Assembly (NCBI GenBank): GCA_963765145.1
Contig: CAVXVG010000005.1
Location: 4,007 to 68,006 of the forward strand
Direction: 5' to 3'
Length of the DNA stretch: 64,000 bases
From: Parachlamydiales bacterium
GTDB lineage: Bacteria > Chlamydiota > Chlamydiia > Chlamydiales > JAJFMK01
Under the pieces are notes generated by a model that ran no database searches, was not told the DNA's origin, and saw nothing but the letters and a program-made list of their open reading frames with translations. Made by a program: the position numbers and the translations under genes. Shown here in pieces: positions 10,501 through 43,248 of the stretch (the stretch's first letter is position 1; each line of letters starts with the position of its first letter).

Positions 10501-10730
10501 GGGGAAATCTCTTCTGTCGGCAACGTTTCCCAGGCCGGCAATTCCAAAATAGGGCAAGAAGCAAAATAGGGGAGATCTAGAAGCATCCCGCCCTCTTTGT
10601 CGCCCAAATTGGAGACGATCAATACAGGTCTGTCTGTCAAGTCATAAGCAAGGGCTGCCAATAAGGCCTTCGGAGTGCTCCAAAGGTCTGAAATGACAAC
10701 CGATTGACCAGCCAGGATCGCTTCCTTCAT
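7551..10730 (-). CDS. mfd: Transcription-repair coupling factor
   Basis: Helicase motifs GDVGYGKTEVAMRA and IIDEEQRFG, plus the TRCF C-terminal region. Start placed at ATG 10730 (MKEAILAGQ) because the 20 upstream codons of the track ORF run towards and partly into the repeat at 10750-10988. Confidence 0.93.
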   Translation of the reverse strand: MKEAILAGQSVVISDLWSTPKALLAALAYDLTDRPVLIVSNLGDKEGGMLLDLPYFASCPILELPAWETLPTEEISPSADVVGERFEVLKKIAKDPKPLVVTNLQGLLQKVLPRHKLSTLELPIKTGQELDEKAFVETLQRFGYQEVLLTADKGEFSRRRGVIDLFPSTCADPIRMEFWEGKVESIRRFDPLGQRSIEKLPSFTLFPAIEREMLNKGDEVSLLHSFQKPPLIIFDDIEEMEERWVQLKSLIGPSPVHLITFEQFLNEANDLQKIFLTDQSLEALSTVQRRASQVTFEAFGRPFTAFAYHHPYQRLRDFLAVDEDVAGDRLLTDLLSPPAPISITFLTESDREDKLLGEAFCSLSPKMPYTFNRGYLSEGLVDGKKGDVLFPFAEWTNRPKIRRKRQRSTRHSNELLLEEFDPGDLVVHLNHGIGKFIGFAKQPNHEGVETEFLILEYAQAGKLYVPLHQSHLVSRYIGVDQSTPRLSEIGSPKWRHIKEKTEREIFGYANDLLQLYAKREIEGGFAFPPDDEEMIAFEHAFPYIETEDQLSAIADIKKDMQDPEPMDRLISGDVGYGKTEVAMRAAFKAIEGGKQVAVLVPTTLLALQHYENFTERMLGFPLRVAHLSRFVKPKERKEIIESVKKGSIDILIGTHRIIGEDIGFKDLGLVIIDEEQRFGVKAKEHLKKMRAGVDCLTLSATPIPRTLYMSLIGVRDISEIKTPPQDRLPIQSFLVEPNDIMIQTALRRELNRGGQAYFIHNRVETIFDVAAHLKKLVPEARIIVGHGQLSNDEIDQIFHTFKKGDADILVSTTIVESGIDIPNANTIIIDRADTFGIADLYQLRGRVGRWNRKAFCYFFVRKIERLPEISKKRLDALVNTSGHGGGLKVALRDLELRGAGDLLGTEQSGDVSSVGFHLYCKLLKRTIHALKGEGPKSLIDCKVDTSLNAKLPELYVPNVTLRLDLYRRLGDAVAINEIDSIGEELADRFGPLPSEAEWLLALSKARVFGATRKCPLIKIEKFTITAQKKVGKDLVDRKTFLPKAMTPASLVAAIDQLTS

Positions 10731-10749
10731 CTGCAACTCATTAAAATAA

Positions 10750-10988
10750 ACCACAGAGGCACAGAGATCACAGAGGAAATATGAGAGCAATGAGAGAGAC
10801 TGCTGCTATACATTTTAACTTTTTTTCTTTGTGTATCTTTATCTTCGTGTCTTTGTGTCTTCGTGTTTAATTTTTTTAAAATGGTTGGAACACAAAGACA
10901 CGAAGGCACAAAGAAAGAAGGATGCTTCCTACGAGCAATACACTCACTGCTCTCAATCTTTCTCTGTGATCTCAGTGCCTCTGTGGTG
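10750..10988. repeat. Nested hairpin repeat (cacagag family with inner cacaaag hairpin)
   Basis: Outer arms are ccacagaggcacagagatcacagagg / cctctgtgatctcagtgcctctgtgg. An inner palindrome lies at about 10826-10918 (ctttgtgtcttcgtgtt...aacacaaagacacgaaggcacaaag). Confidence 0.85.
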
Positions 10989-10998
10989 AAATGAAAAA

Positions 10999-13596
10999 TC
11001 ATTCGATGAGGCTCAAAAACAGTTTGGAAGCCTCTTCAAAGCGGCCCCGATTCTTCATCACACCCTGGGCAAGGTTTGGGCGTCCACCCGCGCTGCCGTC
11101 GACGACCGCAGCTACTTTTTTGAGGAGATCGGCGGCGTTGTGCCCTTTTGCAACCAACTCTTCGTTGATCCTTAAGATGAGGGGAGAAACTTGCCCCTCT
11201 TTTGTTGTGATCAAAAAAGCTTGGAAACGTTGATCAGTAGCTAAAAGTTCGGCCACCTCTTTCAATTCGTCTTGAGAAACGTCAAACGTGGTAACAAGAG
11301 TTTTTTGAGCAGGCAAAGCTTGAAGCAGGTTTTTTAATTCCAATCGCTTAGCCTCTTTTAAATCTTTTTGAAGATTTTTGTTTTCCTCAAGCAGCGATTT
11401 TACTTTGGTGACGAGTGTTGGACCAGACCCTTTCAACAACTCTTCAAGGGCAAGAAGGGTTGCCTCTGCATTGCGGTAGTGCAACAGGGCTTCTTCTCCG
11501 GTCACCGCTTCGATCCGGCGGACGCCGGAAGCGATGCTCCCCTCTTTTACAATTTTTAAAAGGCCTAAAGTCCCCGTTGATTGGGCGTGTGTTCCCCCGC
11601 ACAGTTCGATTGAAGGGCCCATTTGGACAACACGAACTTTTTCACCATACTTTTCGCCAAAAAATTGCTTAATATCAGAACGTCCTTTGACAGCATTGTA
11701 GGCTAATTCTTCCGTTTTAACAGGAACGTTTTGCAAAATCAGCCGATTGATGATCCCTTCAATAGAGGCAATTTCTTCGGAGGTCAACGGTTTATGGTGG
11801 TTGAAGTCGAAACGGAACCGTTCTCCTTCTACCAAAGAACCGGCCTGTTTGATGTGGTCGCCCAACACTTGAGCCAACGCATAGTGAAGCAGATGAGTTG
11901 CCGAGTGGTTTTTTTCCACTTTTCGACGATTTTGGGCATCAAGCGTAGCAGAGATGGTTTCATTAGCCTCTAAAGAGCCCTCTTTCATGACGCCGTAGTG
12001 GAAAGTTAAACCTGTAAAGGGGGATTTTGTCGTCTGAACTTGAAAACGTCCGGTTTTGCATTCAAGCAACCCTTTATCGCCCGATTGTCCACCCATCTCT
12101 GCATAAAAAGGGGTTTGATCAAGCAAAACGGCCCCTTCATCCCCTTCTGAAAGGCGATCGACAAGCTCTCCGTTTTTCATCAAAGCGACAATTTTTCCTG
12201 TCGAGTGGTCGTGACCATAACCGGTGAAGGTGGTCGCCCCTGCTTTATTCAGAAGCTGTTGGTAGACCTGGGATGAAACTTCTTGGCTGGTTGTCTTTTG
12301 GCTTTGTTTCGACCTTTCACGTGCCTCTTTTTCAAGCACGGCAAACCCATCTAGGTCTACTTTAAGGTTACTATCTTTGGCTAAAAGGACGATCTCATCA
12401 ACCGGCAGGCCGTAAGTATCTTTAAGCTTAAAAGCATCAGAGCCCGAAATCAGATGAGAGGCACCGGCATTTTCGATCACTTCTCGTAAGAGGTTGCCGC
12501 CTCGCTTGAGGGTGCGGAAAAAACCTTCTTCTTCTTGTGTCAATACGTCGGCGATGATCGACTGGTGTTTTTTAAGTTCAGGATAGTCTTCGCCCATCTC
12601 TGCAACTAAAGTAGGCAAAATGTCGGCTAGGAAAGGTTTTTCGAAGCCTAAATTTTTTCCATAACGTACGGCCCGTCTCAACACTTTACGTAAGACATAG
12701 CCCCGGTCGACGTTGCCGGGCTGAACCCCGTCTGCAATAGCAAAAGATAGTGTTCTTAGATGGTCGGCGATCACACGGAAAGCAGGAGCTAATTTATCGT
12801 CATCGGCTTTGTAGACAAGGCCGGAGTGCTTTTCAATTCCGTTAATTAAACTGCGCAAAATATCTGTTTCAAAAACAGTGTCAACACCGCTCTTGAGCAT
12901 CATGACTCTTTCAAGGCCACTACCGGTGTCGATGGAAGGGTTTGGAAGGGGGTGTAAAACGCCATCCTGCGTCCGGTTGTACTGCATGAACACCAAGTTC
13001 CAAAACTCGATGAACCGATCGCCTGTTGGGTCATCTTTAGGAGAGGTCCCGGAACCATAAGCGTCACCTCTGTCGAGATAAAGCTCGGAGCATGGACCGC
13101 ATGGGCCGGTTTCACCCATCGCCCAGAAGTTGTCTTTTTCTCCCATTCTGACGATGCGGGAGGCAGGGACATAACGGGTCCAAAGCTTAAAAGCCTCTTC
13201 ATCGGTTTCAAAAACTGAAGGCCAAATTTTTTCTGCAGGAAAGCCGAAAATTTCAGTAGCTACTTCCCAAGCGTAGGCAATGGCAGCCTCTTTGAAATAA
13301 TCGCCAAACGAGAAGTTGCCCAACATTTCAAAGAAGGTGAGGTGCCTTGCGGTATGACCTACGTTTTCTAAGTCGTTGTGTTTGCCCCCGACCCGTAAAC
13401 ATTTTTGGCTTGTCACGGCCCTCTTGTAAGAGGCTTGACGATGTCCCAAAAATAAATCTTTAAATTGATTCATTCCTGCATTGGTAAACAACAAAGTTGG
13501 GTCGTCATGCGGCAAAAGAGGAGAAGAGGGAAGAAGCGTATGTCCACGCTCTTGGAAATAGTGGAGATAATTCTCCCGAGTTTTTTGGCTGTCCAT
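10999..13596 (-). CDS. alaS: Alanine--tRNA ligase
   Basis: FTNAGMNQFK, HLTFFEMLGNFSFGDYFK, editing-domain HSATHLLH and a C-terminal DHHA1-like region. Full length, 865 aa. Confidence 0.96.
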   Translation of the reverse strand: MDSQKTRENYLHYFQERGHTLLPSSPLLPHDDPTLLFTNAGMNQFKDLFLGHRQASYKRAVTSQKCLRVGGKHNDLENVGHTARHLTFFEMLGNFSFGDYFKEAAIAYAWEVATEIFGFPAEKIWPSVFETDEEAFKLWTRYVPASRIVRMGEKDNFWAMGETGPCGPCSELYLDRGDAYGSGTSPKDDPTGDRFIEFWNLVFMQYNRTQDGVLHPLPNPSIDTGSGLERVMMLKSGVDTVFETDILRSLINGIEKHSGLVYKADDDKLAPAFRVIADHLRTLSFAIADGVQPGNVDRGYVLRKVLRRAVRYGKNLGFEKPFLADILPTLVAEMGEDYPELKKHQSIIADVLTQEEEGFFRTLKRGGNLLREVIENAGASHLISGSDAFKLKDTYGLPVDEIVLLAKDSNLKVDLDGFAVLEKEARERSKQSQKTTSQEVSSQVYQQLLNKAGATTFTGYGHDHSTGKIVALMKNGELVDRLSEGDEGAVLLDQTPFYAEMGGQSGDKGLLECKTGRFQVQTTKSPFTGLTFHYGVMKEGSLEANETISATLDAQNRRKVEKNHSATHLLHYALAQVLGDHIKQAGSLVEGERFRFDFNHHKPLTSEEIASIEGIINRLILQNVPVKTEELAYNAVKGRSDIKQFFGEKYGEKVRVVQMGPSIELCGGTHAQSTGTLGLLKIVKEGSIASGVRRIEAVTGEEALLHYRNAEATLLALEELLKGSGPTLVTKVKSLLEENKNLQKDLKEAKRLELKNLLQALPAQKTLVTTFDVSQDELKEVAELLATDQRFQAFLITTKEGQVSPLILRINEELVAKGHNAADLLKKVAAVVDGSAGGRPNLAQGVMKNRGRFEEASKLFLSLIE

Positions 13597-13686
13597 AGGA
13601 GAAATTGTATCGCAAGCAAACGAAAAATAACAGAGTGAACAGAATGCACGGACAGAAGCATCAACCTAAGGAAAAACATCCTATAA

Positions 13687-13833
13687 ATTTAACAGGGTGA
13701 ACAGGATGACCAGGATAAGCTCTGCCTAATTTCACTCTAGAGTGGTAAATAAAGAGCAAAAAAAGGCTTCATTTAATTAGCGCCTATTGGTGGCGAAGCT
13801 TATCCTGGTCATCCTGTTCACCCTGTTAAATTT
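13687..13833. repeat. MITE-like inverted repeat, family B (arms TTAACAGGGTGAACAGGATGAnCAGGATAAGC)
   Basis: The roughly 40-nt arm atttaacagggtgaacaggatgaccaggataagctctgcc has its reverse complement about 65 nt downstream. Other copies at 22767-22927 and 39811-39966, plus a half copy at 42148-42205. Confidence 0.85.
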
Positions 13834-22766: not shown

Positions 22767-22927
22767 AAAAGCATCCTAAAAATTAACAGGGTGAACAGGA
22801 TGAACAGGATAAGCTCCGCCTATAAAAAGCAGTTCCTTTTGTAGACATAAATGAAAAGAGTGGACTTCGCCTATAAAAGCGCTCTATAAAGCTAGGCGGA
22901 GCTTATCCTGTTCACCCTGTTAATTTT
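22767..22927. repeat. MITE-like inverted repeat, family B
   Basis: Left arm aaaagcatcctaaaaattaacagggtgaacaggatgaacaggataagctccgcc; right arm ggcggagcttatcctgttcaccctgttaatttt. Confidence 0.85.
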
Positions 22928-31685: not shown

Positions 31686-34600
31686 ATGAGTACAGTTGGC
31701 GGCGGCAATGCAAGCTATGGTGATATTGAGAATTTTTATGGGCAATGGAAGGCCAACTTGTCTACAGATATGAAAGAACAGGCGGCTTTCGCAGCTTTAA
31801 GCGACGATGATAAAACCATTGTTTTATTAGCATTTAAGTCTCTGTCAAAGAGAAACATTGAAGGCAATTTAGGGACTATTAGATCCGATACATCGGAGCC
31901 TGAAACTGATGCCCCTGATAATATCTCCTTACATTCCATTGAGAGTATTGGAACTGATGGTAGCTCTATGTATTCCTACGCAAGTGGTGATAGTAATGAC
32001 AGTGATTATAGTGATGATGATGGCCCTTTTTACAGGTTGCTTTCCTTTGTAGCTGACGATGGAGATGATAGCTCCCTCACCTCAAATGATAGCTCTGTAG
32101 ATTTTGGCCACACAGGCAACATTGTAACGAAGGAAGATTTGGATGGCGTTCTAAGTAAGTTGAAAAGTAATAAGCGTTTAAATTTTGAAAATCGTAAAGA
32201 AGTCTCTCGAGACATCACCAAGGCTGTCGACCAGAGTTACAGAAATATCATGCGGGTTGCAGGACACCTTCCCACAGACAGTGAGAGGAAATATGCAGCT
32301 GGCTATACAGAAGCAAAATTTAAAAGTATTTACAAACAGCGGGCCGCCTTGCAGGAGGCGTTTGAAGGCGATTTTGTAGGTCAGATGATGGAGGGGATTG
32401 ATGTCCCCACTGAAGGTCTACTTTCTTCTAAACCTCTCTATGACAATTTAAAAGCTTGGGCAGAGAAGAACATTAAGAGTGGAGATTTTCAAAAAGCTGC
32501 GCTCAAAATTATTAAAGACTTGAAGGAGCACGAAACCGAATTTACGAAGGGAAAAGTTCAAGATAGTAATTTGCGAAATCAAGTTGAGGTATTTAAGGAT
32601 AGGCTCACCTTGGCTTTTATCGAATTAAACCCGCAACTAACACCAGAAGATATTAAAAAACTAAATCGGTTCGGTTTGAAAGGAACAAGCCAGCAACAGG
32701 TGATACGAGATTGTTTTATCGATTTAGGGAAAGTCTTTATTTGGCCCCTCCAAAAAGCCTTTGAGGTGCTTAAACCGGGTGAAGTGAGGGACGAAGCGGT
32801 ATCTGCCATTCGGTCCGGGTTTATGAAGCTGATTATTGACCCCGATAAAGGAAATCGGTTGATTGCGACCTTTAAGGAGATATTTACCCAGATTACAAAA
32901 GCCCCATTAGAGTCGATGGGGGCAGTGGGTCGTATGAAAGGGCCTTTCGCCGCGATTGCTAATAGGCCTGAAAACGTCGTGTTTCAAGAAATCAATAAGT
33001 TGGAGGCCCAGGTAGTCGAAGAGCGGGCAGAGATAGATAAAGTGATTAATGACGGGCTGACACTGGAAGGAGGCATTCCGGAAGCGCAAAGAGAGACCCT
33101 TTTAGAAAAGATCGCGGTTTACCATGAAAACTGCCAGTTATTGCTGGCTATGATGGAGCTAAAGGAAAGCCTTTTTGTAAAAGGGTACGTTCTTCTTCCC
33201 CACTTGGCAGCTGGTCACGGTAAGGAGATACACGCTCAAGCAAATGTCTTGATGAACCATGTAGCCTTTGCTGTCGATATGAGGGGTGTTCTAGAGCATG
33301 CCGATCAAGTCGCAGTCAGGATGGAAGAAAAAGGGATCAGCGCTCAAAATGCCTACTTATCTTTGGTCAAAGGCACTCCTCCGAAAGAGGGAGAGACCAT
33401 TGAGTTGTCTCAGGAAAGAGTAGAAGTTGAAGCCGAAGCTGCAGAAAAGTTGGAGAGGGCAGGCAATTGGTTGCAGTATGCCCGCTCGAGAGGAGATCTG
33501 TCTGCACCCATTTATTTGGCTGACTTGATTTGTACTTCAGATCGAAAAGCTTGGTCTCCGGAAAATGCCGATCGCACCTTTGCAACAGCGCAGATGTTGT
33601 TAAACGAGTCTTTCAAAGGGGGAGACTATGAACGTCGAGCAGATGCCGAGACAGCGATGAGATCTTTGCTCCGGCTCCGTTTTGAGGCTTCTGTTCGAAA
33701 TGATCGGCCTATGGCGGAGCAGACCTATAATGCCCATGAGCTCATCAAAGGGATGAAGTATGTCAACTCGGTCACCCGCTTCCCAACAACTGCAGCTAGA
33801 GAAACAGCTTTAAGAAATCAGCTGTTAGGTTTGGTTCTATTAGGCTCGCAAGAGGCCGGACAAGTTATTCTCGACCAAATTGACCAGCATGCCAAAAAAG
33901 GGCGTGTAACCGCAGGTGATGTTTTGGTGCTTTCAGAATTGGCAGCCGAGGGGTTTCCCGGCGCAAAAGAGAGGTTGCAAAATGTTACGCAAATGAAATC
34001 CTTTCTGGATAAGGTTGAAAAAGATGCTAAAAAAGAGATACTAACTTCTGAAGCCTTCAGAGCTTTAGCCAGTCTGGCAGCCCACGGAAATGTGAAGGCA
34101 AGATCTGTTCTTGGTGATCTTAATAAGGGAGACTCAGGCTTTCTTGGGGTATTTGGTCGTTCATATCCTCCAACAGAAGATGAAGATTTTTTGGATATGG
34201 CCATTTCCAACTGGGCGATGTCTATTGCCGCCGGGAGCTCATTAACACAAATTCCATCCATGCAATACGACCACGTGAAAGGCTTTAAAGAGTTTTATGA
34301 TCGGTATGCCCTGTCGCCTATCCAAATAGACTTCAACATTCCTCCTTTCAAGGGAGTAGAAGTAGACCTTGAAGCGATATCAGACCGGGCAGCTAAAGGG
34401 AAGCTAACTGAAAAAGATGTCAATAACTTGGTTTTAGCCATTGGCAGCGGAAATCGCGAGGCTATCCTCACCTTAGACGATGCTATCGTCAAGATGGCTG
34501 CTAGGCATAGTGAAATCCAAAAATCCAAAAATCCGAATGAAGTATTGAAATTTGCAAAGTGGGCTTTAGGGCAGGCCAAGAGCCCCGATGGTTTGCAGCG

Positions 34601-35375
34601 TCCTCTTGCAGATCAGGCTGACAATATCAAGGAAAGATACAATAAATTGTTCCCATCAGTGTTCGCGGAACAAATCCCAGCTCAACAGGTTCAACCAGAA
34701 GTTCCATCATCGGAAACGGAAGCTGAAACGATTAGCCAAGGATCGATCGACGATAGTCTTTTGGATTCAGATTTAAACGATTTTGGACCTCCTCAAGCAC
34801 CTATGGAGCCTTTTTCGTTGCAACAGACTCTGATTGCAGCAATTGAACGTGTAAATGAAAAAGTAGAGATAGAGGTAGAGAGCGAGTATGAGGTTGCCCC
34901 AGCTGCAGCTACCGCGTCCCCAGCCGCAACTGTTACTGAAGTTCCTCCCCTGTCAGACACTGAATTTTTGTTTAAAAAAATGAACGAGGGGGGGCAAGTG
35001 GAAAGCGAAGCATTTTTCACTGAGATGGGGCGTCGTTTTGAAAGAGGAGTCGTTTCTTGGGTGGATTTAAAATTCCTAACGAACTCTCTTCTAAGCAGTG
35101 AGAATAAAGTTAAGGCAGATAACCTTTTAAGAATAATTGCAAATGCAAAAACAGAAGGAACCGACGACTACGCAGCCATTGCGAATTTAAACATGGGTGA
35201 AAAATGGGCTGCCGATGTGTTGTTAAATGAAATCAATACATCGCTTAAGCCTCCCTCAGATCCCTTGGGGGAAAACTCATTGTTATCAGGTCAGCCTAAG
35301 GCTATCTCTACCTTCAAGATAAATTGGCAGTTTTGGAAAAAGAGTTCGAAAGGCACACAGGGAGAATCTCTATGA
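31686..35375 (+). CDS. Large hypothetical protein (1229 aa) with acidic Ser/Asp/Tyr-rich N-region and Sel1-like motifs
   Basis: No signal peptide. SYASGDSNDSDYSDDDGPFY tract. AA..G...A...L motifs (LAAEGFPGAKERL, LAAHGNVKARSVLGDL, IGSGNREAILTL). SD-like aggggag upstream. Confidence 0.6.
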   Translation: MSTVGGGNASYGDIENFYGQWKANLSTDMKEQAAFAALSDDDKTIVLLAFKSLSKRNIEGNLGTIRSDTSEPETDAPDNISLHSIESIGTDGSSMYSYASGDSNDSDYSDDDGPFYRLLSFVADDGDDSSLTSNDSSVDFGHTGNIVTKEDLDGVLSKLKSNKRLNFENRKEVSRDITKAVDQSYRNIMRVAGHLPTDSERKYAAGYTEAKFKSIYKQRAALQEAFEGDFVGQMMEGIDVPTEGLLSSKPLYDNLKAWAEKNIKSGDFQKAALKIIKDLKEHETEFTKGKVQDSNLRNQVEVFKDRLTLAFIELNPQLTPEDIKKLNRFGLKGTSQQQVIRDCFIDLGKVFIWPLQKAFEVLKPGEVRDEAVSAIRSGFMKLIIDPDKGNRLIATFKEIFTQITKAPLESMGAVGRMKGPFAAIANRPENVVFQEINKLEAQVVEERAEIDKVINDGLTLEGGIPEAQRETLLEKIAVYHENCQLLLAMMELKESLFVKGYVLLPHLAAGHGKEIHAQANVLMNHVAFAVDMRGVLEHADQVAVRMEEKGISAQNAYLSLVKGTPPKEGETIELSQERVEVEAEAAEKLERAGNWLQYARSRGDLSAPIYLADLICTSDRKAWSPENADRTFATAQMLLNESFKGGDYERRADAETAMRSLLRLRFEASVRNDRPMAEQTYNAHELIKGMKYVNSVTRFPTTAARETALRNQLLGLVLLGSQEAGQVILDQIDQHAKKGRVTAGDVLVLSELAAEGFPGAKERLQNVTQMKSFLDKVEKDAKKEILTSEAFRALASLAAHGNVKARSVLGDLNKGDSGFLGVFGRSYPPTEDEDFLDMAISNWAMSIAAGSSLTQIPSMQYDHVKGFKEFYDRYALSPIQIDFNIPPFKGVEVDLEAISDRAAKGKLTEKDVNNLVLAIGSGNREAILTLDDAIVKMAARHSEIQKSKNPNEVLKFAKWALGQAKSPDGLQRPLADQADNIKERYNKLFPSVFAEQIPAQQVQPEVPSSETEAETISQGSIDDSLLDSDLNDFGPPQAPMEPFSLQQTLIAAIERVNEKVEIEVESEYEVAPAAATASPAATVTEVPPLSDTEFLFKKMNEGGQVESEAFFTEMGRRFERGVVSWVDLKFLTNSLLSSENKVKADNLLRIIANAKTEGTDDYAAIANLNMGEKWAADVLLNEINTSLKPPSDPLGENSLLSGQPKAISTFKINWQFWKKSSKGTQGESL

Positions 35376-37909
35376 CAACACGTTCAGGTGATTTAAGTTT
35401 TGGGCAAGCTCGCGATGTCTATTCTGCATTTTATACTGCAGGCCATGCAGATGGAAAATCGGAAGCGAAAGTGTTTGGAGAGCTGTCGCTAGATGAGCGT
35501 AAGGTGATTGTCCGTGCCATCGAAGTGTTAGGAGGAAGAAAAGGTACCGCCGGAAGTTCTCTTGTGTCAGACGATCGATTAACACCTCTAATTAAAAAAT
35601 TAGGAGGCGATAACGTGACGACCATTGATGATAAAGACTTACCAAATGCTCTAAAAGGTAGTAAACCCATCCTTGTCCAAGGGCGGGCTGAAATAGGGAT
35701 GGCCAACCGCTTCTTAGTACACGATAAATTTTTAAAAGCTCTTGAGCCAGACGGAGAACTTTATCAAAAGCTTGAAGGGTTTTTTAATAATCCTCACGCA
35801 TCGCAAAAAACATTGGTGAACAGGGCCGTAAAAGAATGGGTGGAGAATTTACCTCCCGGAGAAGGGAAAGCGGCGGCTAAAGAAGCTTTGCAATACCTAG
35901 AAGCAAGTATCAACAATTTTTCTTCTGCGCATGGCTTTACCCCAGAGAATTTAAAGAAGGTCATTGGCGATTTTAGAGAAAATATTCACAAAGAACTTGT
36001 GCTTGCATGGGGTGCAACACCTTTAACAAAAGCAGACCATCAAGCGATGGGGATTGGCGCTTTGGATCTGCTGCCATTTTCTATCAACAAAACCACCATC
36101 AAACAAAAACGGGCAGAGTTTGAGAGCATTGTTGACGATCTTAGGGATCCTAAGAAAAGCAAGGAAGGGCTTGAGGAAAGGCTGTCGCAACTTGAGGGCG
36201 AGCTGTTGCCAATGGTCCGCTATCCGGAATGTGCCGGTCTTTATTCACGTGTTGTAGGTGAGCATGTAAATCTCTTAAGAGAAAGCAGGGATCCAGAGGT
36301 TGAAGATCGGGCGATTGAGCTTACGAAAATTCAGTATATTTATGCCATGTACGCCGCTGCAAAGGGAAATGGAGAGGGGGCGTATAGCTTTGCTAGAGGG
36401 TTTGTCGAGTTTGGGTTGTGGACTAAAGATGAGAGGGAAAATACCCTAAAAGAGGGTTTGCGTTTAGTTGACTTAGCCATTAATGCGGCCAAGAAAAGCG
36501 GAGATAAAGGGTTGCTCGCGAAAGCCAATGTTCTAAGAGCTGTTCTTTTAGAAAAAAATTACCTGACTTTACTTGAGCTAAGAAATGAGTTTGAGGAACC
36601 GAGAAGTGTAAAAAAAGCGGAAAAATATGTCATAGACAACTTTGTTAAATTGGGTTTTGATGGCATTGAGGGGCTTTATATTTTGTTTGTCAGGGGTGGA
36701 TCTTCTGCCGACCCGATGATCGACCTGCTGAAGAGGTTCCTGGTAGGCCCATTCAAGGTAAAGCCAACAGCAGAACATGTTAAGTGGATCACCACCGCAG
36801 CCTTAGCCGGCAATGAGAAGGCTATAAAGCTTTTAACCAAGCTTGTTGAACTTTATCCTGCAGAAACCAAAAAAGTTCCTGCCCTTATCCCGGCCGCGCT
36901 GTTAGTAAAGGATGGGGTCCATACCAATGCAAACGTTAGTGAATTTACACGAATAGACGCTTTGAAATGTTACCAAGAGGCCTTTGACCATTTGGCAAAC
37001 GAACTTAGGGAATTAAAGAATTCCGGACAGTTAAATCGAGCTACACTTGATGCGATTTTGCCAAGATTAGAGGTATTACGTGGCAAGTATGAGGCGCTTC
37101 TTAGGCAATTCCCGGATAAGACTCTTACACAGTCAGCAATGCAGTTAAGAAAGGACATAAACACTGCAATCGAAGAAATCAAAGAGGCTGAAGTTGGAGT
37201 TTTGGAGGAAGCGCCAGTCCCGGGCATAGCTAAGCACATGGACTTAGGCTCGCCAAAAGTTGCTCCATCTCGTAATAGGTTTTTCAGTGCCGTCAGCAAG
37301 TTTTTTAATGAATGGGTCATGCCCAAGTCTGAAATTCTGAAGTTCAGGGAACCTGCAGGAAGCCCTGAGCCGATAGATCCCCAGTTGACAGCTGCCGATT
37401 TTCATAAGTCGAAAGATGAAGATTTAACGAAAACCGAACCCTCTTTGTTAACTACCACCATCTACGACATCGATGCCCTAGAAATAAGTGATTCATTCAT
37501 CGACCGCATAGGTGGTTCTTTAACTCCAATTCCTGCGCCAGCTAAAAAAGCAGCTCCTGTGATTTCAGCGGTTGAAGTCGGTGACGAAGCTACTCAAGGT
37601 GTCGTCAATGTGTTTGGGGAATTTTGGGATGCAGCAGATGGAAAAGTTCACTTGAAAGGATTTCTTTCCATGGCAGGGCAAGACGAATTTGATAAGGGGA
37701 ATTTTAATCAAAAGCAAATAGAAGCTGCAAAGAAGACCGAGTTCATGGCTCAAATAGCCAAATTAAAAGAGCTGGGTGAAAAAGAACAACCTATCGCTAT
37801 TCGGTTGATGGCCGATAAAATGGGCAATGCCAAATATGTTAATTCCCTAACCAAGCTTATTGAAGATGATAGATTTGAAGCAGTCCAAAAACTCCTTTCC
37901 GCTCAGTAA
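35372..37909 (+). CDS. Large hypothetical protein (845 aa), paralogous N-terminus to the upstream gene
   Basis: ATG at 35372 forms an ATGA overlap with the upstream stop. FGELSLDERKVIVRAIEVL compares with AALSDDDKTIVLLAFKSL in the upstream protein. Sel1-like AALAGNEKAIKLLTKL. Confidence 0.6.
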   Translation: MTTRSGDLSFGQARDVYSAFYTAGHADGKSEAKVFGELSLDERKVIVRAIEVLGGRKGTAGSSLVSDDRLTPLIKKLGGDNVTTIDDKDLPNALKGSKPILVQGRAEIGMANRFLVHDKFLKALEPDGELYQKLEGFFNNPHASQKTLVNRAVKEWVENLPPGEGKAAAKEALQYLEASINNFSSAHGFTPENLKKVIGDFRENIHKELVLAWGATPLTKADHQAMGIGALDLLPFSINKTTIKQKRAEFESIVDDLRDPKKSKEGLEERLSQLEGELLPMVRYPECAGLYSRVVGEHVNLLRESRDPEVEDRAIELTKIQYIYAMYAAAKGNGEGAYSFARGFVEFGLWTKDERENTLKEGLRLVDLAINAAKKSGDKGLLAKANVLRAVLLEKNYLTLLELRNEFEEPRSVKKAEKYVIDNFVKLGFDGIEGLYILFVRGGSSADPMIDLLKRFLVGPFKVKPTAEHVKWITTAALAGNEKAIKLLTKLVELYPAETKKVPALIPAALLVKDGVHTNANVSEFTRIDALKCYQEAFDHLANELRELKNSGQLNRATLDAILPRLEVLRGKYEALLRQFPDKTLTQSAMQLRKDINTAIEEIKEAEVGVLEEAPVPGIAKHMDLGSPKVAPSRNRFFSAVSKFFNEWVMPKSEILKFREPAGSPEPIDPQLTAADFHKSKDEDLTKTEPSLLTTTIYDIDALEISDSFIDRIGGSLTPIPAPAKKAAPVISAVEVGDEATQGVVNVFGEFWDAADGKVHLKGFLSMAGQDEFDKGNFNQKQIEAAKKTEFMAQIAKLKELGEKEQPIAIRLMADKMGNAKYVNSLTKLIEDDRFEAVQKLLSAQ

Positions 37910-38286: not shown

Positions 38287-38715
38287 TTAGGATTTATTCT
38301 TAGTTTTGTTTTTGAAAACAATCGGTTCGGCATAGAGGGGATGCTTTGCGATGGCGACAGGGAGACCTTCGTAAAAGAGAATCGCTTGGTAGGAGAGGTA
38401 GCCGCCGGTATCGAGATAGGTTTGCCCTCTCAACGGGATTTCGAAGCGACCGGCGCAGTTGGGGAGGAAGAAGGCCTCTGTTTCTCGCTCACCACAATGG
38501 AAAACACGGGTGAGTTCGAGCCAGTAACCCGGTTTTTTAGGAATGGTCCAGTGGATGATGAGAGTTTCGCCTTGGCTATTTGGGTCGCACCGACGGGGGT
38601 CTGGAGTTTGAACGTAAGTACTGGCAAGACGTTCGAGGGTGTCATAGCGGGTGTAAACGGTTAGATTGGGGCCGCAGCAGGCCGAAAGTAAGAAAAGGAA
38701 AAGAAGGGCTCTCAT
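38287..38715 (-). CDS. Putative lipoprotein
   Basis: MRALLFLFLLSAC lipobox. ATG at 38713-38715 forms an ATGA overlap with the DAHP synthase stop. Confidence 0.55.
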   Translation of the reverse strand: MRALLFLFLLSACCGPNLTVYTRYDTLERLASTYVQTPDPRRCDPNSQGETLIIHWTIPKKPGYWLELTRVFHCGERETEAFFLPNCAGRFEIPLRGQTYLDTGGYLSYQAILFYEGLPVAIAKHPLYAEPIVFKNKTKNKS

Positions 38716-39698
38716 CTGCAACTTAAAATGAGTTCTTCGGTCTCTTCCCAGCCGAGGCATGGGTCAGTGGCTGAAAGGTAAGGAGAGTTGCCTTTGCCAC
38801 GCTCGATGAAACTTTCTACCATGGCGCCGATGATCCTTTTTTCCCCTTTTTCGTAGCGTTCGAACACCTCTAAAAAATTTTTCTTTTGCTTTTCTAAATC
38901 TTTTTGAGAGTTGTCGTGGGCGCAGTCGATGACCATCTTGGGCTCCAGATCAAATTCGAGTAGCCGGTGTTCAATTTGGTCAAGAACATGGGTTTGAAAA
39001 TTAGGGCCATTTGGACCACCACGGAGAACTAAGTGGGTGTAGGGGTTCCCGGGTGTTTCAATGAACTCGAGTTGTCCTTGCAAGTTGGGAAGAATGGTCG
39101 ATTGAGGCTGGCGTGCCGCGACCACCCCTTGGATGGCCATTTCAAAAGAACCATCGATCCCGTTTTTAAAAGCGATGGGAAGTGTCAGAGAGGAAGCTAA
39201 TTCACGATGAACGGCTGAGGCCGAGGTTCTGGCTCCAATCCACCCCCACGTCACCAAATCGGAGGTGTAAGGGGCAAGTAAGGGGTTTAAAAACTCTGTT
39301 GCAAGTGGAACTCCCATTTTGGTGAGCTCTAAAAACAGCTTGCGAGATTCATAGATCCCTTTCACAACTTCAGGAGGCTTTGAGCTAGTTGGGTCGGTGA
39401 TAAAGCCTTTCCACCCTCCCCAGCTGCGGGGCTTTTCTAAAGAGGCCCGCATGACAATGAAGAAAGTATTTCCTAAAGATTTTTGAAGCTCAACCACTCT
39501 TTGGCCATATTCTAAAGCACTTTCAGTGTGGTGGATAGAGCATGGGCCTAATACAAGCAGAAATCCGGGCGATCCCTGTAGTTTTTTTTCAATCTTCTGC
39601 CTAAAAGCTGCAATTTTTAACGCCTCGGCAGGTTGCAAGGATAAATCCTTATGCAATTGATCAAGGGTTGGAAGAGGGGTCGAGTGGCAAAAGAACAT
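38712..39698 (-). CDS. aroG: 3-deoxy-7-phosphoheptulonate (DAHP) synthase, class I
   Basis: LVLGPCSIH, EKPRSWGGWKGFITDP and WIGARTS are typical of class I DAHP synthases. Confidence 0.8.
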   Translation of the reverse strand: MFFCHSTPLPTLDQLHKDLSLQPAEALKIAAFRQKIEKKLQGSPGFLLVLGPCSIHHTESALEYGQRVVELQKSLGNTFFIVMRASLEKPRSWGGWKGFITDPTSSKPPEVVKGIYESRKLFLELTKMGVPLATEFLNPLLAPYTSDLVTWGWIGARTSASAVHRELASSLTLPIAFKNGIDGSFEMAIQGVVAARQPQSTILPNLQGQLEFIETPGNPYTHLVLRGGPNGPNFQTHVLDQIEHRLLEFDLEPKMVIDCAHDNSQKDLEKQKKNFLEVFERYEKGEKRIIGAMVESFIERGKGNSPYLSATDPCLGWEETEELILSCR

Positions 39699-39810
39699 AT
39701 CGTTAAAGATTCTTCCTCATTCCCACTAAACAGGCAATCCAAAAAATAACCAGATGGCTAAGTATATTTGCATGAATCAAAGACATTCTTGTTGTGACGC
39801 CAGAAAAAAA

Positions 39811-39966
39811 TAACAGGGTGAACAGGATGAACAGGATAAGCTCTGCCCACAAAGGAAATGTTTTTTTAAACAAATGGAAAGAATGGCTTCGCCTCTGCTT
39901 TTACCATTTTGAAATAGAGAGGCAGAGTTTATCCTGTTTACCCTGTTAAATTTTTAGGATGCTTTT
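39811..39966. repeat. MITE-like inverted repeat, family B
   Basis: Left arm taacagggtgaacaggatgaacaggataagctctgcc; right arm ggcagagtttatcctgtttaccctgttaaatttttaggatgc. Confidence 0.85.
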
Positions 39967-40004
39967 TCCTAGGTAATGCCGCTAGCGCGGACTGCTTATT
40001 TTTG
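39907..40004. repeat. Direct repeat DR3, copy a (orphan copy of MITE arm + recF 3' end)
   Basis: ttttgaaatagagaggcagagtttatcct..gtttaccctgttaaatttttaggatgctttttcctaggtaatgccgctagcgcggactgcttatttt matches 42132-42240. Confidence 0.85.
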
Positions 40005-40025
40005 TTTGGATGTGGGTATGGTTCT

Positions 40026-41435
40026 TTAATCTGGAAATAAGGCGAGGACTAGATGTCTTTTATCCAAAGTCGTCGGAAGTGGTAGCAGATTAATATCAGT
40101 TTTAATGTAGTAGAGTTCTTTTAGTCGTTTATAAAGCATGTTGATGAATTGTCTTAAGAGATAAAATTCCGGCATGAACATCTGATATTGGCGAATGGCT
40201 AACTGGGCGCTAGTGATCTGATCAATAGACTTAATCTGTTTCAATTTCTCTAATAGCTGAGGAAGCTTTTCTTTTGAAAACCGATAAGGGATGTCGGCAA
40301 AGGATTCATCCATCATTTGGTGAAAGGGAAACTTGAGAAACTTTTCTAGGCGGACTTCCAAATCTTTAGCGAAACTTAAAAACAGTTGATAACACTCTTT
40401 GTAAACTTTTGCGTGTTGAGTCATTTTATGTTCAACTTGATCTTGAATCGTTTCAATTCCATCAACACAATCATCCACCGGATAGAGATCGCCTAAAAGG
40501 TGGCTTACAGTTTTCTCAAAGTCGTCATTGAGTTCAAAGTCCATAAAAAAGTTTCCTTGTCGAAAAGCATTCAAAATCTCAATCACCCCCTTCCAGTCTT
40601 GCCCAAAGTGAGGTGGGCTGCGCAGAATGGGAGCGATAAAAGCTGGCAATAATGGCTCTATTTGGATTAAGCAATTGCGAAAAAGTACTGTCTTAGTTAT
40701 TTCAGAACTATTTTGGAGCCCGGGAATTACTGAACGGATTGCAATAATTGCTTGGAGTATTCTATTCCAGGTAGGGGCTGTTTTTGGCAATTTGCCGATG
40801 ATAACTTGCAATTCTTTTTGTTTTTTTAATTCATAGTTTTTTTTGTTTTTTACCTGTGTTGCTATGAGTATCCCTGCTGCGGCAAAATGGTCAAGCGCAG
40901 TCATCAAGCTTCTTTTAGAGTATCCTATTTCAACGAGGTCGGCGGCTGAAAAATACTTCCCTTTTCGTGCGAGAAAGTGTGTCAAGATGTCAGCTTTTGC
41001 CCCAGGGCCAAATAAGCTTCGTGTTCGAAGCGCTAGAAGGGAGGGAGATTCAAGCGGCGGAAGCAAAGATTTTCCGCTCAAGTGAACTTTAAATTGAACT
41101 GTCTCTTCTGCGCTCGGCCACTTTGCTGATGATATCGAATTTAAAGCTGCAGCAAATTGTGAGAAAGAGCGCATTGCATCATTATTCAATCCTTTTAGAA
41201 GCGCGCGTAGCCGACTGACCGAAACATACTCATGGTAGCGAGAGAGCCAATCTAAGGCTTCATCGCGTAGGCGAGGGTCATATTCTGAGACAACTGTAGT
41301 CAAAATAATCAACTCTTCTGGTGGGATTAGGCAGTTCTCGTGAAAGCGGTCGATTCCGGCTACCCCCAATTCTTTCCACAAGCTCCATGCAAGTCCAGCA
41401 AGCAGGTGATCAAACTCTTCCTTCATTTCCACCAT
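40026..41435 (-). CDS. Hypothetical 469-aa protein with central winged-helix-like segment
   Basis: ADILTHFLARKGKYFSAADLVEIGYSKRSLMTALDHFAAAGILIATQ looks like a wHTH. Its start lies 1 nt after the stop of the upstream nucleotidyltransferase gene. Confidence 0.55.
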   Translation of the reverse strand: MVEMKEEFDHLLAGLAWSLWKELGVAGIDRFHENCLIPPEELIILTTVVSEYDPRLRDEALDWLSRYHEYVSVSRLRALLKGLNNDAMRSFSQFAAALNSISSAKWPSAEETVQFKVHLSGKSLLPPLESPSLLALRTRSLFGPGAKADILTHFLARKGKYFSAADLVEIGYSKRSLMTALDHFAAAGILIATQVKNKKNYELKKQKELQVIIGKLPKTAPTWNRILQAIIAIRSVIPGLQNSSEITKTVLFRNCLIQIEPLLPAFIAPILRSPPHFGQDWKGVIEILNAFRQGNFFMDFELNDDFEKTVSHLLGDLYPVDDCVDGIETIQDQVEHKMTQHAKVYKECYQLFLSFAKDLEVRLEKFLKFPFHQMMDESFADIPYRFSKEKLPQLLEKLKQIKSIDQITSAQLAIRQYQMFMPEFYLLRQFINMLYKRLKELYYIKTDINLLPLPTTLDKRHLVLALFPD

Positions 41436-41436
41436 T

Positions 41437-41991
41437 TTATTCTCCGAGTTGTAGTAATGCTTCAGCTAAAGTTCTCGCAAATTCTTCTGATACGTCATGC
41501 GTTTTACACCAAAAGCCCGCTTTTAAAAGCTCTTCGCTTGTGGGGTGTAATCGCTTTAAATCTTCGAAATGCTTGGAGCCGGGGCCTTGATCGACTGAGG
41601 CATAGAGTTTAAAACAAATCTGATCAAACCGGCTTGCGCAGAAGAGGGTTAGTCCACCGAAGTGGATGGGTTCTAAGCGCTTTTGAAATCCTTCTGGTAG
41701 TCCCATTTCCCATAAATCGGCTGCTGTGGAATTGATCCAGTCTTCAGGCAGCTTAAGTGCCGTTCCAACTTCTCTAATTGCTGCAAGAAGTGGAGCTGGT
41801 AAGGGTCTGGCTGAAATGAGCTCGTTTCCATCGATCATGGCAACAACATCTACATCTTTTGTAGGTCGAATGACGCATCCCAATAATAATAAGGCGCCTC
41901 CACCAATGGCGACTATTTCATATTTCAATCCTTTATCTGACAAATAGGAGCCTAATACCTCTAAGGCATCATTTAATGTATTTGAATCCAT
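41437..41991 (-). CDS. Minimal nucleotidyltransferase-fold protein (MNT / AbiEii / DUF6036-like)
   Basis: From ATG 41989-41991 (MDSNTLNDALEVL). Contains the polymerase-beta-type NTase pattern IGGGALLLLGCVIRPTKDVDVV (G-G-x-A ... R-x-T-x-D-x-D). Confidence 0.6.
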   Translation of the reverse strand: MDSNTLNDALEVLGSYLSDKGLKYEIVAIGGGALLLLGCVIRPTKDVDVVAMIDGNELISARPLPAPLLAAIREVGTALKLPEDWINSTAADLWEMGLPEGFQKRLEPIHFGGLTLFCASRFDQICFKLYASVDQGPGSKHFEDLKRLHPTSEELLKAGFWCKTHDVSEEFARTLAEALLQLGE

Positions 41992-42131
41992 AATGCTCCA
42001 GATCGAGAAGTTTAACATCTCAATTCGACATCTTAATCTTACCAAAAAGTGAATTAAAATGGTAATGCGGCTTGCTTTAGCCAATACCAACTATGGTTTG
42101 GGGGAAGCCTTTTTTGTCTCTGTTTCTACCG

Positions 42132-42240
42132 TTTTGAAACAGAGATAGGCGGAGCTTATCCTATTGATCCTGTTCACCCTGTTAAATTTCTAGGATGCTT
42201 TTTTCCTAGGTAATGCATGCTAGCGCGGACTGTTTATTTT
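42132..42240. repeat. Direct repeat DR3, copy b (half family B MITE + true recF 3' end)
   Basis: See DR3 copy a. Contains the recF stop codon at 42220-42222. Confidence 0.85.
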
Positions 42241-43248
42241 CTTTCTAATTTCGGTGTGGTGGGTGGCGGTGTTGGCAACGGGAGCGGTTGAGGTGATGAT
42301 GACTTGGCCGAGGGTGGGGGCGATGTCCCAAAACTTTTCGATGCGGATGGGGTCTAGGCTGGCTGTCAAATCGTCCAGAAGAAGAAGAGGCTTCCCTTCA
42401 TGGATGGCATGGTGGGCCAGCTTTATGGCCAATAAATAAGATTTTTTTTCCCCTTCGCTTCCAAAATGACGAATTTCCCTTCCATCAGCATGAAAAAGAA
42501 TGTCATCTCGGTGGGGCCCGTTCAATGTATAGCCGCAATCGAGCTCCTTTTCCCTTGCTGTTTTCCACAGCTCTCTTAAATTTGTTTTGGTTTTGTAAAC
42601 AAACTCCATCTTTTTGTGTACGCCAAGGAGATGACGAAAAAGAGGGTCGGCGTGAGGCAACAGTTTTTGCAGCCCCTGTTCTCGTTCCGAAATCAGGTAA
42701 AGGGCGCTTTTTTCTAGTTCAGTTTCAATCGCATCGAGCATCTGAACGCGCTTGCTTTTCAAGTTCCCATTTCGGCACTCCAAACCCTTTTGATAACGAA
42801 GTCTATGGTGCAGATAAGTGGGATTCTGTTTGGCTAACAGTAGGTCAAGAAAACGGCGCCGGTCATCTGAAGAACCGGTTATGAGGGTGGCATCTTGAGG
42901 AGTTAAAGAAACTGCAGGGATCAGGCCCAACACTTCGCTTGCACCGCTCAATTTTTTTTGACCGGCGTAAAAACTCGCCTTTTCATCAAAAGTCCAGCCA
43001 AGTTGATGGTGCATGGCCGTGCCGGATTTATAATGCAATTTTGCAAATGCTTTAGAAAAGCCCTCTTCAACAAGATGTTGGGCTCTTTTTGTTCTAAACG
43101 ATTGGCCAAAAATAAAAAGGGTTAAAGCCTCAAGGATCGAACTTTTACCTGCTCCATTTTCTCCCCAAAGCAGGTGAATCCCGTCCGAAAAAGAAAAAGC
43201 AGCTTCTTCAAAGCACCGAAAATGGGAAAGAAGAAGCTGCTCGATCAT
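42220..43248 (-). CDS. recF: DNA replication and repair protein RecF
   Basis: Walker A GENGAGKSSILEAL. SMC-type signature FGSEGEKKS and Walker B LLLLDD. Immediately downstream of dnaN. Confidence 0.9.
   Translation of the reverse strand: MIEQLLLSHFRCFEEAAFSFSDGIHLLWGENGAGKSSILEALTLFIFGQSFRTKRAQHLVEEGFSKAFAKLHYKSGTAMHHQLGWTFDEKASFYAGQKKLSGASEVLGLIPAVSLTPQDATLITGSSDDRRRFLDLLLAKQNPTYLHHRLRYQKGLECRNGNLKSKRVQMLDAIETELEKSALYLISEREQGLQKLLPHADPLFRHLLGVHKKMEFVYKTKTNLRELWKTAREKELDCGYTLNGPHRDDILFHADGREIRHFGSEGEKKSYLLAIKLAHHAIHEGKPLLLLDDLTASLDPIRIEKFWDIAPTLGQVIITSTAPVANTATHHTEIRKKINSPR

Follow-up and report, generated by a model that had tools for sequence, protein, structure and literature searches.

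We describe here a two-gene cassette in a 64-kb stretch of the genome of a Parachlamydiales bacterium (GenBank assembly GCA_963765145.1, contig CAVXVG010000005.1); this whole stretch is called the window, and all coordinates refer to positions in it. The cassette, 2.1 kb in size, lies between recF and a gene for 3-deoxy-D-arabino-heptulosonate 7-phosphate (DAHP) synthase, and encodes a nucleotidyltransferase (NTase) followed by a larger protein with a central winged helix. On balance, we lean towards reading it as an AbiE/MenAT-like module in which the NTase would be the toxin, the partner would represent a new family of antitoxin and repressor, and the usual gene order is reversed. The locus has several features looked for in toxin-antitoxin systems: tight linkage of the two genes, a palindrome in the promoter, an empty insertion site together with variable genomic contexts, and decay that strikes the NTase gene in 16 loci versus 3 for its partner. 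A preliminary description of this DNA had proposed a toxin-antitoxin or abortive-infection-like system, a proposal now supported by motifs of the AbiEii/MenT kind, a MenT1-like fold, the decay of the NTase and the promoter palindrome. The two genes are as follows:

41437..41991, minus strand: gene 1, a 184-aa DUF6036 nucleotidyltransferase, predicted toxin (Pfam DUF6036, E 3.5e-9)
40026..41435, minus strand: gene 2, the 469-aa partner, predicted antitoxin and autorepressor (AlphaFold 2 model, homologues, profile search)

The TAA stop codon of gene 1 (41439-41437) is separated by a single A from the ATG of gene 2 (41435), which is the 1-nt gap reported earlier, and the GGAG for the partner start sits within the 3' end of the NTase gene; translation of gene 2 is coupled to that of gene 1. 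The start of the NTase is the ATG at 41991 and not the TTG at 42090, since the homologues begin there and a conserved promoter, a palindrome and a GGAG lie just upstream of it. In its distal half the 469-aa gene has a G+C content of 37-40%, compared with 40-50% in the flanking genes.

The first protein had been taken for a small NTase of the polymerase-beta type, and its family match, its catalytic motifs and its fold all agree with this. It scores 37.1 bits (E 3.5e-9) against Pfam DUF6036 (PF19502), above the gathering threshold of 23.6 bits, and the same profile matches 16 of 16 aligned homologues at the E-value cut-off; among the 11 with printed scores, 10 exceed the gathering score and one reaches 22.8 bits. 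The key residues are G30-G31, R42, T44, D46, D48, K128-L-Y-A and K140-H-F-E-D144. Proper alignment of 98 distinct intact NTases, 41-83% identical to the window protein, finds the catalytic residues in place: G30, G31, R42, T44, D46, K128 and D144 are invariant (98/98), as are W85, N87, R105 and D166, and D48 is kept in 97 of the 98. In the AlphaFold 2 model (predicted local distance difference test score, pLDDT, 88.5) the polymerase-beta signature I-G30-G31 ... D46-V-D48-V falls on a strand (24-29), a helix (31-36) and a second strand (47-54). Foldseek searches with this model returned the NTase-like protein 5uvd (prob 1.0), MenT1 (8an5_B; prob 0.87, template modelling (TM) score 0.46), terminal uridylyltransferases and Cid1, and a sequence search of PDB chains gave nothing significant for either the NTase or the partner.

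These motifs can be compared with those of the DUF1814 group, whose published pattern is hG[GS], a long spacer (~15 residues), R-x3-D-h-D, KLxA and an acidic motif IV of the form +xxxD (PMC3985639). Here the G-to-D spacer is 14 residues long, and R42, T44, D46, K128 and D144 are invariant in the 98 sequences. The active site of MenT1 consists of T39, D41, K137 and D152, with T39 being auto-phosphorylated upon antitoxin binding (PMC11375011), and AbiEii is reported to be controlled by the same auto-phosphorylation route (bioRxiv 10.64898/2026.01.19.700257). A weak match to Pfam AbiEii (profile positions 3-94, which hold motifs I-II) is present in 12 of 16 NTase homologues, and the PADLOC AbiEii model matches 4 of the 16. 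Because its motifs line up with those of DUF1814 and with T39/D41/K137/D152 of MenT1, the NTase is an active-looking but distant member of the AbiEii/MenT superfamily, one that falls below the Pfam AbiEii threshold.

The partner is a different case, as the 469-aa protein belongs to no significant Pfam, NCBIfam or PADLOC family. Its only recognisable feature had been said to be a central winged helix-turn-helix (wHTH), and profile and fold searches lead to the same view. Two parts of it can be placed on the DNA:

40821..41045, minus strand: winged helix-turn-helix, residues ~131-205, preceded by an invariant L-R-x-R-x-L-F-G (AlphaFold 2 with DSSP, Foldseek, family profile matches)
40029..40520, minus strand: C-terminal helical extension, residues 306-469, four long helices (range of the profile-search matches, AlphaFold 2 model)

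The model (pLDDT 87.5) consists of an N-terminal helical domain (1-101), a linker, the winged helix (~131-205), a second helical domain (223-292) and four long helices (306-469). DSSP assigns helices 146-156, 165-170 and 174-186 and strands 190-203 to the winged helix. Sequence matches of this segment are weak (AbiEi_4, E 0.25; Hop2 wHTH, E 0.24), with HTH_20, MarR_2 and AbiEi_4 matching in members of the family, and Foldseek of the whole model found only winged-helix regulators in PDB and viral structures, among them those of ArsR, MarR, TubR and Hop2; the C-terminal extension has no fold match in either set. AbiEi_4, a wHTH profile, matches 2 of 22 partner members below threshold, and PADLOC AbiEi matches one of the 22 at E ~0.01. 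No family of the AbiEi C-terminal domain matched the partner, and the top 50 Foldseek matches include neither AbiEi nor Rv2827c. The residues invariant across the family are W17, R55, L56, L136, R137, R139, G143 and W223, none of which is typically catalytic. A regular-expression search found no R-x4-6-H motif, just as had been noted by eye, so that the HEPN signature of MNT-HEPN systems is missing here; HEPN or another nuclease in the partner was rejected, with no such motif, no family and no fold match in PDB or viral structures.

The two genes are conserved as neighbours. The loci of the pair (~130) come from Chlamydiota, in long and short forms, from Myxococcota and from Hydrogenedentota. 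When loci were ascertained through the partner, NTase sequence, either intact or as remnants, lay directly upstream in 47 of 51 genome loci; the remaining four comprise one with a sub-threshold NTase trace and three with none. When they were ascertained through the NTase, the partner lay directly downstream in 76 of 76 metagenome loci with room for it. Across the loci examined the two genes overlap or sit 1 nt apart, and a ~315-aa relative of the partner on a metagenome contig of the Joint Genome Institute overlaps a DUF6036 gene likewise. The pair is an obligate operon, and the coupled cassette first seen in the window holds in these 47/51 and 76/76 loci.

Both families are large. More than 500 homologues of the NTase were collected, and more than 200 of the partner at a length of ~470 aa; among the latter, all with a named source are chlamydial, and every full-length genome locus comes from a metagenome-assembled genome (MAG) of Chlamydiota. 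A profile search of 1.84 billion representative proteins with the partner gave 1794 clusters (50% identity); the best 150 of these are for the most part ~300 aa long and match profile positions 1-300 only. The chlamydial protein is therefore a core plus an extension, that is, a widespread core of ~300 aa with a central winged helix, to which a lineage-specific helical tail of ~170 aa has been added in chlamydiae. The earlier remark that the partner is far larger than HepT or AbiEi holds for the 469-aa protein of the window, yet this size is partly a chlamydial peculiarity. Homologues of the partner are also named from Planctomycetota and Nitriliruptorales (Actinomycetota), which brings the total to at least five phyla. 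Some relatives carry the core fused to other sequence: P0343 (465 aa) ends in a GGDEF diguanylate cyclase (E 4.8e-24), while P0282 (746 aa) and P0332 (1591 aa) have long extensions on the core with no Pfam match. Such fusions suggest that the ~300-aa core can act as a sensor or regulatory module.

The combination had been called uncharacterised, and we came to the same conclusion. PADLOC-DB v2.0.0 contains no matching named system, only weak single-domain matches (AbiEii for the NTase; PDC-M05A and the Csa3 wHTH for the partner), NCBIfam has no name for the pair, and we found no paper that mentions DUF6036 or PF19502. Identity with a known PADLOC system was rejected, the nearest candidate, PDC-M05, being an NTase with a HEPN protein whose likeness to our pair is confined to the wHTH.

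The way in which these cassettes decay bears on which of the two proteins would be harmful. Of the loci ascertained through the partner, ~49 are informative. In 16 of them the NTase gene has a frameshift, an interruption or a truncation or is missing altogether, and in 3 the partner gene is disrupted, though it is 1.6-2.5 times longer; the NTase is thus disrupted about five times more often (binomial p 5e-6 to 5e-5). Random assembly errors would strike the longer gene more. A toxic or costly NTase would be expected to give this asymmetry. The opposite division of labour, as in the type VII system MntA-HepT, would make the NTase an antitoxin that nucleotidylylates its partner, with the partner as the growth-inhibiting effector. 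An NTase-first order is found in MntA-HepT and would also agree with the usual antitoxin-first layout, and Ser18 and Ser72 of the partner are nearly invariant and could be sites of modification. However, loss of the NTase would then free a toxin, and it is precisely the NTase that decays while the partner stays intact, which disfavours an MntA-like antitoxin. Moreover, the partner has neither a HEPN motif or fold nor invariant residues of a catalytic type (its invariants are only W, R, L and G), and the motifs of the NTase are those of DUF1814 toxins, not of MNT proteins. We give these reversed roles little credence.

The region upstream of the NTase is informative as well, since it appears to hold signals by which the cassette would control itself:

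42036..42065, minus strand: putative cassette promoter, with a -35-like TTACCA (42065-42060), an 18-nt spacer and an extended -10 element TGGTAAGAT (42044-42036) (conserved block in the alignment)
42005..42021, no strand assigned: palindrome GAGATGTTAAACTTCTC, 7/8 pairs, putative operator of the winged-helix partner (conserved in the alignment; enrichment)

The promoter is inferred from a block that is conserved among 11 otherwise unalignable upstream regions, with the consensus TTGCA ... TTTGGTAAGAT; a generic promoter scan of the region did not call it. The palindrome follows the -10 element and precedes the Shine-Dalgarno sequence, with its end 17 nt short of the NTase ATG. In the conserved upstream block of chlamydial cassettes it reads GAAGTTAAACTTC and is flanked by TCGA. 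Across phyla, a GAAGTTnAACTTC or CTCGAnTCGAG palindrome is present in 30 of 105 upstream windows versus 15 of 6053 control windows, an enrichment of ~115-fold. This arrangement would fit autorepression by a dimeric winged-helix protein. An RNA hairpin in place of an operator was considered and is disfavoured, as the outer positions show no covariation and only the half-sites are conserved; an Rfam scan of the region, in turn, gave nothing above noise, and a structured RNA was rejected.

The cassettes are scattered over their host genomes. Where chlamydial cassettes occupy unrelated sites, nucleotide homology starts 50-70 nt upstream of the NTase ATG and ends at the partner stop, which suggests that promoter and two genes form a self-contained unit that moves horizontally. 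Pair neighbourhoods are unrelated across loci; none of 60 other pair loci lies near recF, dnaN, aroG or smpB, and a conserved recF-linked location was rejected (0/60). The cassette is present twice in each of two MAGs (L028 with L041, and L048 with L054). We surveyed the two nearest open reading frames (ORFs) per side at 32 loci, 128 neighbouring ORFs in all. They include HipA (twice), HI1420-type antidotes (twice), one canonical AbiEi/AbiEii pair, a type I specificity subunit and an SNF2 helicase, along with ankyrin and leucine-rich-repeat effectors and many housekeeping genes. The distribution is scattered, as for toxin-antitoxin loci, and not concentrated in defence islands. A Waddliaceae MAG (L008 and L011, ~9776-13363 and 1-42) has two ~475-aa ORFs without a Pfam match, a HEPN fragment and a canonical AbiEii gene beside the cassette, and this region may be a small island of conflict genes.

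The main alternative takes the pair for a non-toxic accessory regulatory system, in which a transcription factor would be set by its cognate NTase, acting on the factor itself or on a small molecule, and would control other genes. It would account for the partner being kept where the NTase is lost and for the many housekeeping neighbours, and the fusion of the core to a diguanylate cyclase in P0343 suggests a signalling or regulatory core. Against it speak the movement of the promoter and both genes as a unit into unrelated sites, the presence of the palindrome in the cassette's own promoter, the lack of a conserved third gene or regulon context, the toxin-type DUF1814 motifs of the NTase and the occurrence of more than one copy within the same MAG. 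Such a regulatory pair is in our opinion unlikely, yet it deserves some weight.

In the window itself, the insertion can be seen by comparison with relatives. On the minus strand the order is dnaN (44427-43264), recF (43248-42220), the 184-aa ORF (41991-41437), the 469-aa ORF (41435-40026) and the DAHP synthase gene (39698-38712). The surroundings of the cassette are as follows:

42220..43248, minus strand: recF, 342 aa, intact, upstream chromosomal neighbour (Pfam SMC_N/AAA_23; homologues are RecF)
38712..39698, minus strand: DAHP synthase gene, 328 aa, downstream chromosomal neighbour (Pfam DAHP_synth_1, E 2.6e-49)
42100..42260, no strand assigned: direct-repeat copy A, comprising the recF 3' end and stop, a spacer, one arm (42189-42148) of an element resembling a miniature inverted-repeat transposable element (MITE) and about half its loop (repeat search, pairwise alignment, motif counts)
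39880..40022, no strand assigned: direct-repeat copy B, a decayed recF 3' end and then the full MITE-like element (repeat search, pairwise alignment, motif counts)
39806..39955, no strand assigned: complete MITE-like inverted-repeat element, arms 39806-39847 and 39921-39955, loop ~73 nt (inverted-repeat search)

The dnaN-recF synteny agrees with relatives L141 and L143. L141 is the closest long contig (2.6 Mb, RecF 77% identical), and there the order runs rlmH-smpB and then dnaN-recF, followed by 281 nt and a 328-aa DAHP synthase gene, without the cassette; a 40-nt leader of the DAHP synthase gene aligns between the two. Since recF stands directly beside the DAHP synthase gene in L141, the two-gene pair is an insertion. 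The preliminary description had the cassette interrupting a conserved aroG/recF-dnaN neighbourhood, and this stands, with L141 as the empty site and the 60 other loci located elsewhere. L141 also has a HicB-type antitoxin gene at 8699-9034, two genes downstream of its DAHP synthase gene, and thus this neighbourhood accepts small genes of the toxin-antitoxin type in that relative too. The closest relative by RecF (L145, 93% identical, on a 2323-nt contig) already differs just past recF, where positions 2154-2323 show another arrangement of AACAGGATAAGC-type repeats; the spacer downstream of recF is therefore variable and repeat-rich even among close relatives. Upstream of the region, the window holds two ORFs of great length, 1229 aa and 861 aa (31686-37909, plus strand).

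Imperfect direct repeats of ~125-160 nt bracket the cassette, ~79-93% identical block by block in pairwise alignment with one 9-nt indel. Copy A starts with the final ~42 nt of recF. Copy B opens with an orphan recF 3' end (40022-39981), placed 4 nt past the stop codon of the partner; this recF end is 79% identical over 42 nt and contains in-frame stops. A 14-mer, CAGTCCGCGCTAGC, occurs exactly twice in the 64-kb window versus 0.14 expected, both times in the flanking repeats. Direct repeats of roughly 100 bp with an orphan recF stop region had been described before; they are present and somewhat longer, but a part of them is the arm of a dispersed MITE-like element. This element, ~140-200 nt long, has copies in the window at 13627-13829, 22783-22923 and 39806-39955 and a partial copy at 42100-42189. 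Its arms read (A)TTAACAGGGTGAACAGGATGAACAGGATAAGCTCTGCC and its loops vary, and the window contains 12 matches to the arm motif where 0 are expected. On peat metagenome contigs the arm is covered at ~18 times the depth of the flanking genes, which makes the element high-copy in this genome, and apparent 2.3-kb "skips" met in these metagenomes during a search for an empty allele are other copies of it. A 56-aa ORF between the cassette and the DAHP synthase gene (39703-39873, minus strand) mostly overlaps one MITE-like arm; it has no Pfam match, the recF-DAHP-synthase spacer of the empty-site L141 has no called gene, and it is probably not a gene.

Flanking repeats are not restricted to the window. 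In L010, L022, L037, L042, L054 and L106 the cassette likewise stands between imperfect direct repeats, here 47-154 nt long and 83-96% identical; this makes 6 of 61 other loci versus 0 of 167 controls of the same geometry. These loci belong to other Chlamydiota and to one Polyangiaceae MAG, and their repeats are locus-specific and derived from the host. In L022 the gene downstream has its promoter and start codon copied within the repeat, and the L054 repeat reaches ~20 nt into the end of the partner gene. A circular DNA that carried a copy of the recF end and entered by a single crossover would leave the arrangement found in the window, and so would a long target duplication. One could suppose that both proteins act in moving or maintaining the cassette, for example as a palindrome-binding protein and a polymerase-beta-fold enzyme that take part in insertion, which would explain the long flanking duplications. 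These recurrent repeats, a 2.1-kb unit that holds no integrase or transposase, and the plasmid-segregation protein TubR among the top structural matches of the wHTH would all suit this idea. Most loci, however, have no flanking repeat, no terminal inverted repeats are conserved between cassettes, and neither protein has a known recombinase or primase motif, the motifs of the NTase fitting RNA-modifying toxins instead. We regard a mobility function for the two proteins as scarcely credible.

Several observations count against an AbiE/MenAT-like module and have to be set beside the evidence in its favour. In AbiE and MenAT the antitoxin gene precedes the NTase toxin gene (PMC3985639, PMC7450476), while here the NTase is upstream in all ~130 loci. 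In sequence the NTase resembles AbiEii and MenT at a level below threshold (best E 0.001), and in structure the resemblance is modest (TM 0.46); the best homologue reaches 16.9 bits against Pfam AbiEii (PF08843), for which the gathering threshold is 22.5, and the window NTase itself does not match. Its motif IV reads K-H-x-x-D instead of +DxxD, with H replacing the first D, and the Arg of KLxAaxxR is absent, since K128-L-Y-A-S-V-D-Q has Gln at that place. The partner matched none of the known antitoxin families (COG5340, COG4861 and the MazE-like MenA1), COG4861 being judged through Pfam AbiEi-family profiles only, and it resembles AbiEi and MenA in nothing beyond a generic wHTH. A partner with an independent regulatory function would produce the same asymmetry of decay. 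The 128 neighbouring ORFs, mostly housekeeping, show no clear enrichment of defence islands. Finally, no copy of the family was found on 2.9 million viral contigs, and a phage-borne origin was rejected accordingly.

If the cassette is nonetheless a toxin-antitoxin module, it could work in the following way. By analogy with MenT and AbiEii, the NTase of gene 1 would stop growth by adding nucleotides to the acceptor ends of tRNA. The partner would repress the operon by binding the palindrome that separates the -10 element from the ribosome-binding site; it would also bind the NTase and neutralise it, possibly through auto-phosphorylation of the invariant Thr44. An antitoxin-induced auto-phosphorylation shared with MenAT1 is plausible by this analogy. 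The toxicity, its target, the neutralisation, the repression and any role in phage defence or DNA stabilisation are in each case predictions from comparative evidence.

NTase toxins of the AbiEii/MenT kind, a subject of active research at present, extend tRNA ends and so block translation; their antitoxins, of which three unrelated families are known, silence them by provoking auto-phosphorylation. The cassette would define a large unnamed sister group of these systems, with ~1,800 partner clusters, a fourth type of partner, an inverted gene order and a retained phospho-acceptor Thr. This combination of a new partner, an inverted order and a kept Thr offers a direct test of how general control by auto-phosphorylation is. 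A bolder proposal would see here a distinct addiction or defence cassette of several phyla, with a previously unrecognised antitoxin family, in which a promoter and two genes move without an internal recombinase and leave target duplications of 50-150 bp; we hold this to be quite improbable. Were it true, DUF1814-like NTase toxins would have a fourth independent type of antitoxin, and small toxin-antitoxin cassettes a new way to spread, including into obligate intracellular chlamydiae. Genome stability and conflicts with phages or mobile elements are little studied in environmental Chlamydiota, where this cassette is one of few recurrent candidates for a toxin-antitoxin or abortive-infection module. 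In addition, the recurrent long flanking duplications provide a separate clue to the movement of such minimal cassettes.

Comparison with known systems places the cassette more precisely. Like AbiE (COG5340-COG2253), it is bicistronic and combines a polymerase-beta-fold NTase with a winged-helix DNA-binding protein (PMC3985639). The two NTases share a long G-to-D spacer, an Arg four residues before the first Asp, a Ser or Thr two residues before it, KLxA and a downstream acidic motif, and the promoter palindromes recall the autoregulation by AbiEi. In contrast to AbiE, the NTase gene comes first, the opposite order already remarked upon in the preliminary description and now found throughout the ~130 loci. 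The NTase is a 184-aa protein of Pfam DUF6036 and below the cut-off for DUF1814/AbiEii, and the wHTH of the partner is central between two helical domains, whereas that of AbiEi is N-terminal; the AbiEi C-terminal domain has no match here.

MenAT1 of Mycobacterium tuberculosis (Rv0078A / MenA1; PDB 8AN5) provides the closest solved toxin fold (Foldseek prob 0.87), MenT1 being a minimal NTase of ~184 residues (PMC10435456). The spacing T-x-D ... K ... D corresponds, with T39/D41/K137/D152 in MenT1 versus T44/D46/K128/D144 here (PMC11375011), and Thr44 stands two residues before the catalytic Asp46, as do T39 of MenT1 and S78 of MenT3. Sequence identity to MenT1 is only ~18%, however, with a TM score of only 0.46, and MenA1 is a disordered MazE-like peptide of 68 aa encoded upstream, whereas the partner of our NTase is a folded wHTH protein of 300-470 aa encoded downstream. 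MenAT2 and COG4861-COG4849 similarly join a short NTase to a much larger predicted transcriptional regulator in tight linkage (PMC7450476, PMC3985639), but the COG4861 gene precedes the NTase, and the partner described here has only a weak AbiEi_4 wHTH match among the Pfam profiles.

MntA-HepT and PADLOC PDC-M05, both composed of an NTase and a HEPN protein (PMC12988326), share with the cassette the NTase-first order of a two-gene module, and in 18 of 22 members the partner wHTH gives a weak match to the PDC-M05A profile over its first ~90 positions. They differ in that our partner has no HEPN motif or fold, and in that the NTase matches no PDC-M05 model and has motifs of the DUF1814 type, not of the MNT type; because the partner lacks HEPN, MNT-HEPN systems and PDC-M05 are excluded. 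The closest known kind is therefore the DUF1814 group of NTase toxin-antitoxin systems, which comprises AbiE and MenAT1 to MenAT4 (PMC3985639, PMC7450476, PMC10435456, PMC11375011), and the cassette is best seen as a distant variant of this known kind rather than as a wholly new one.

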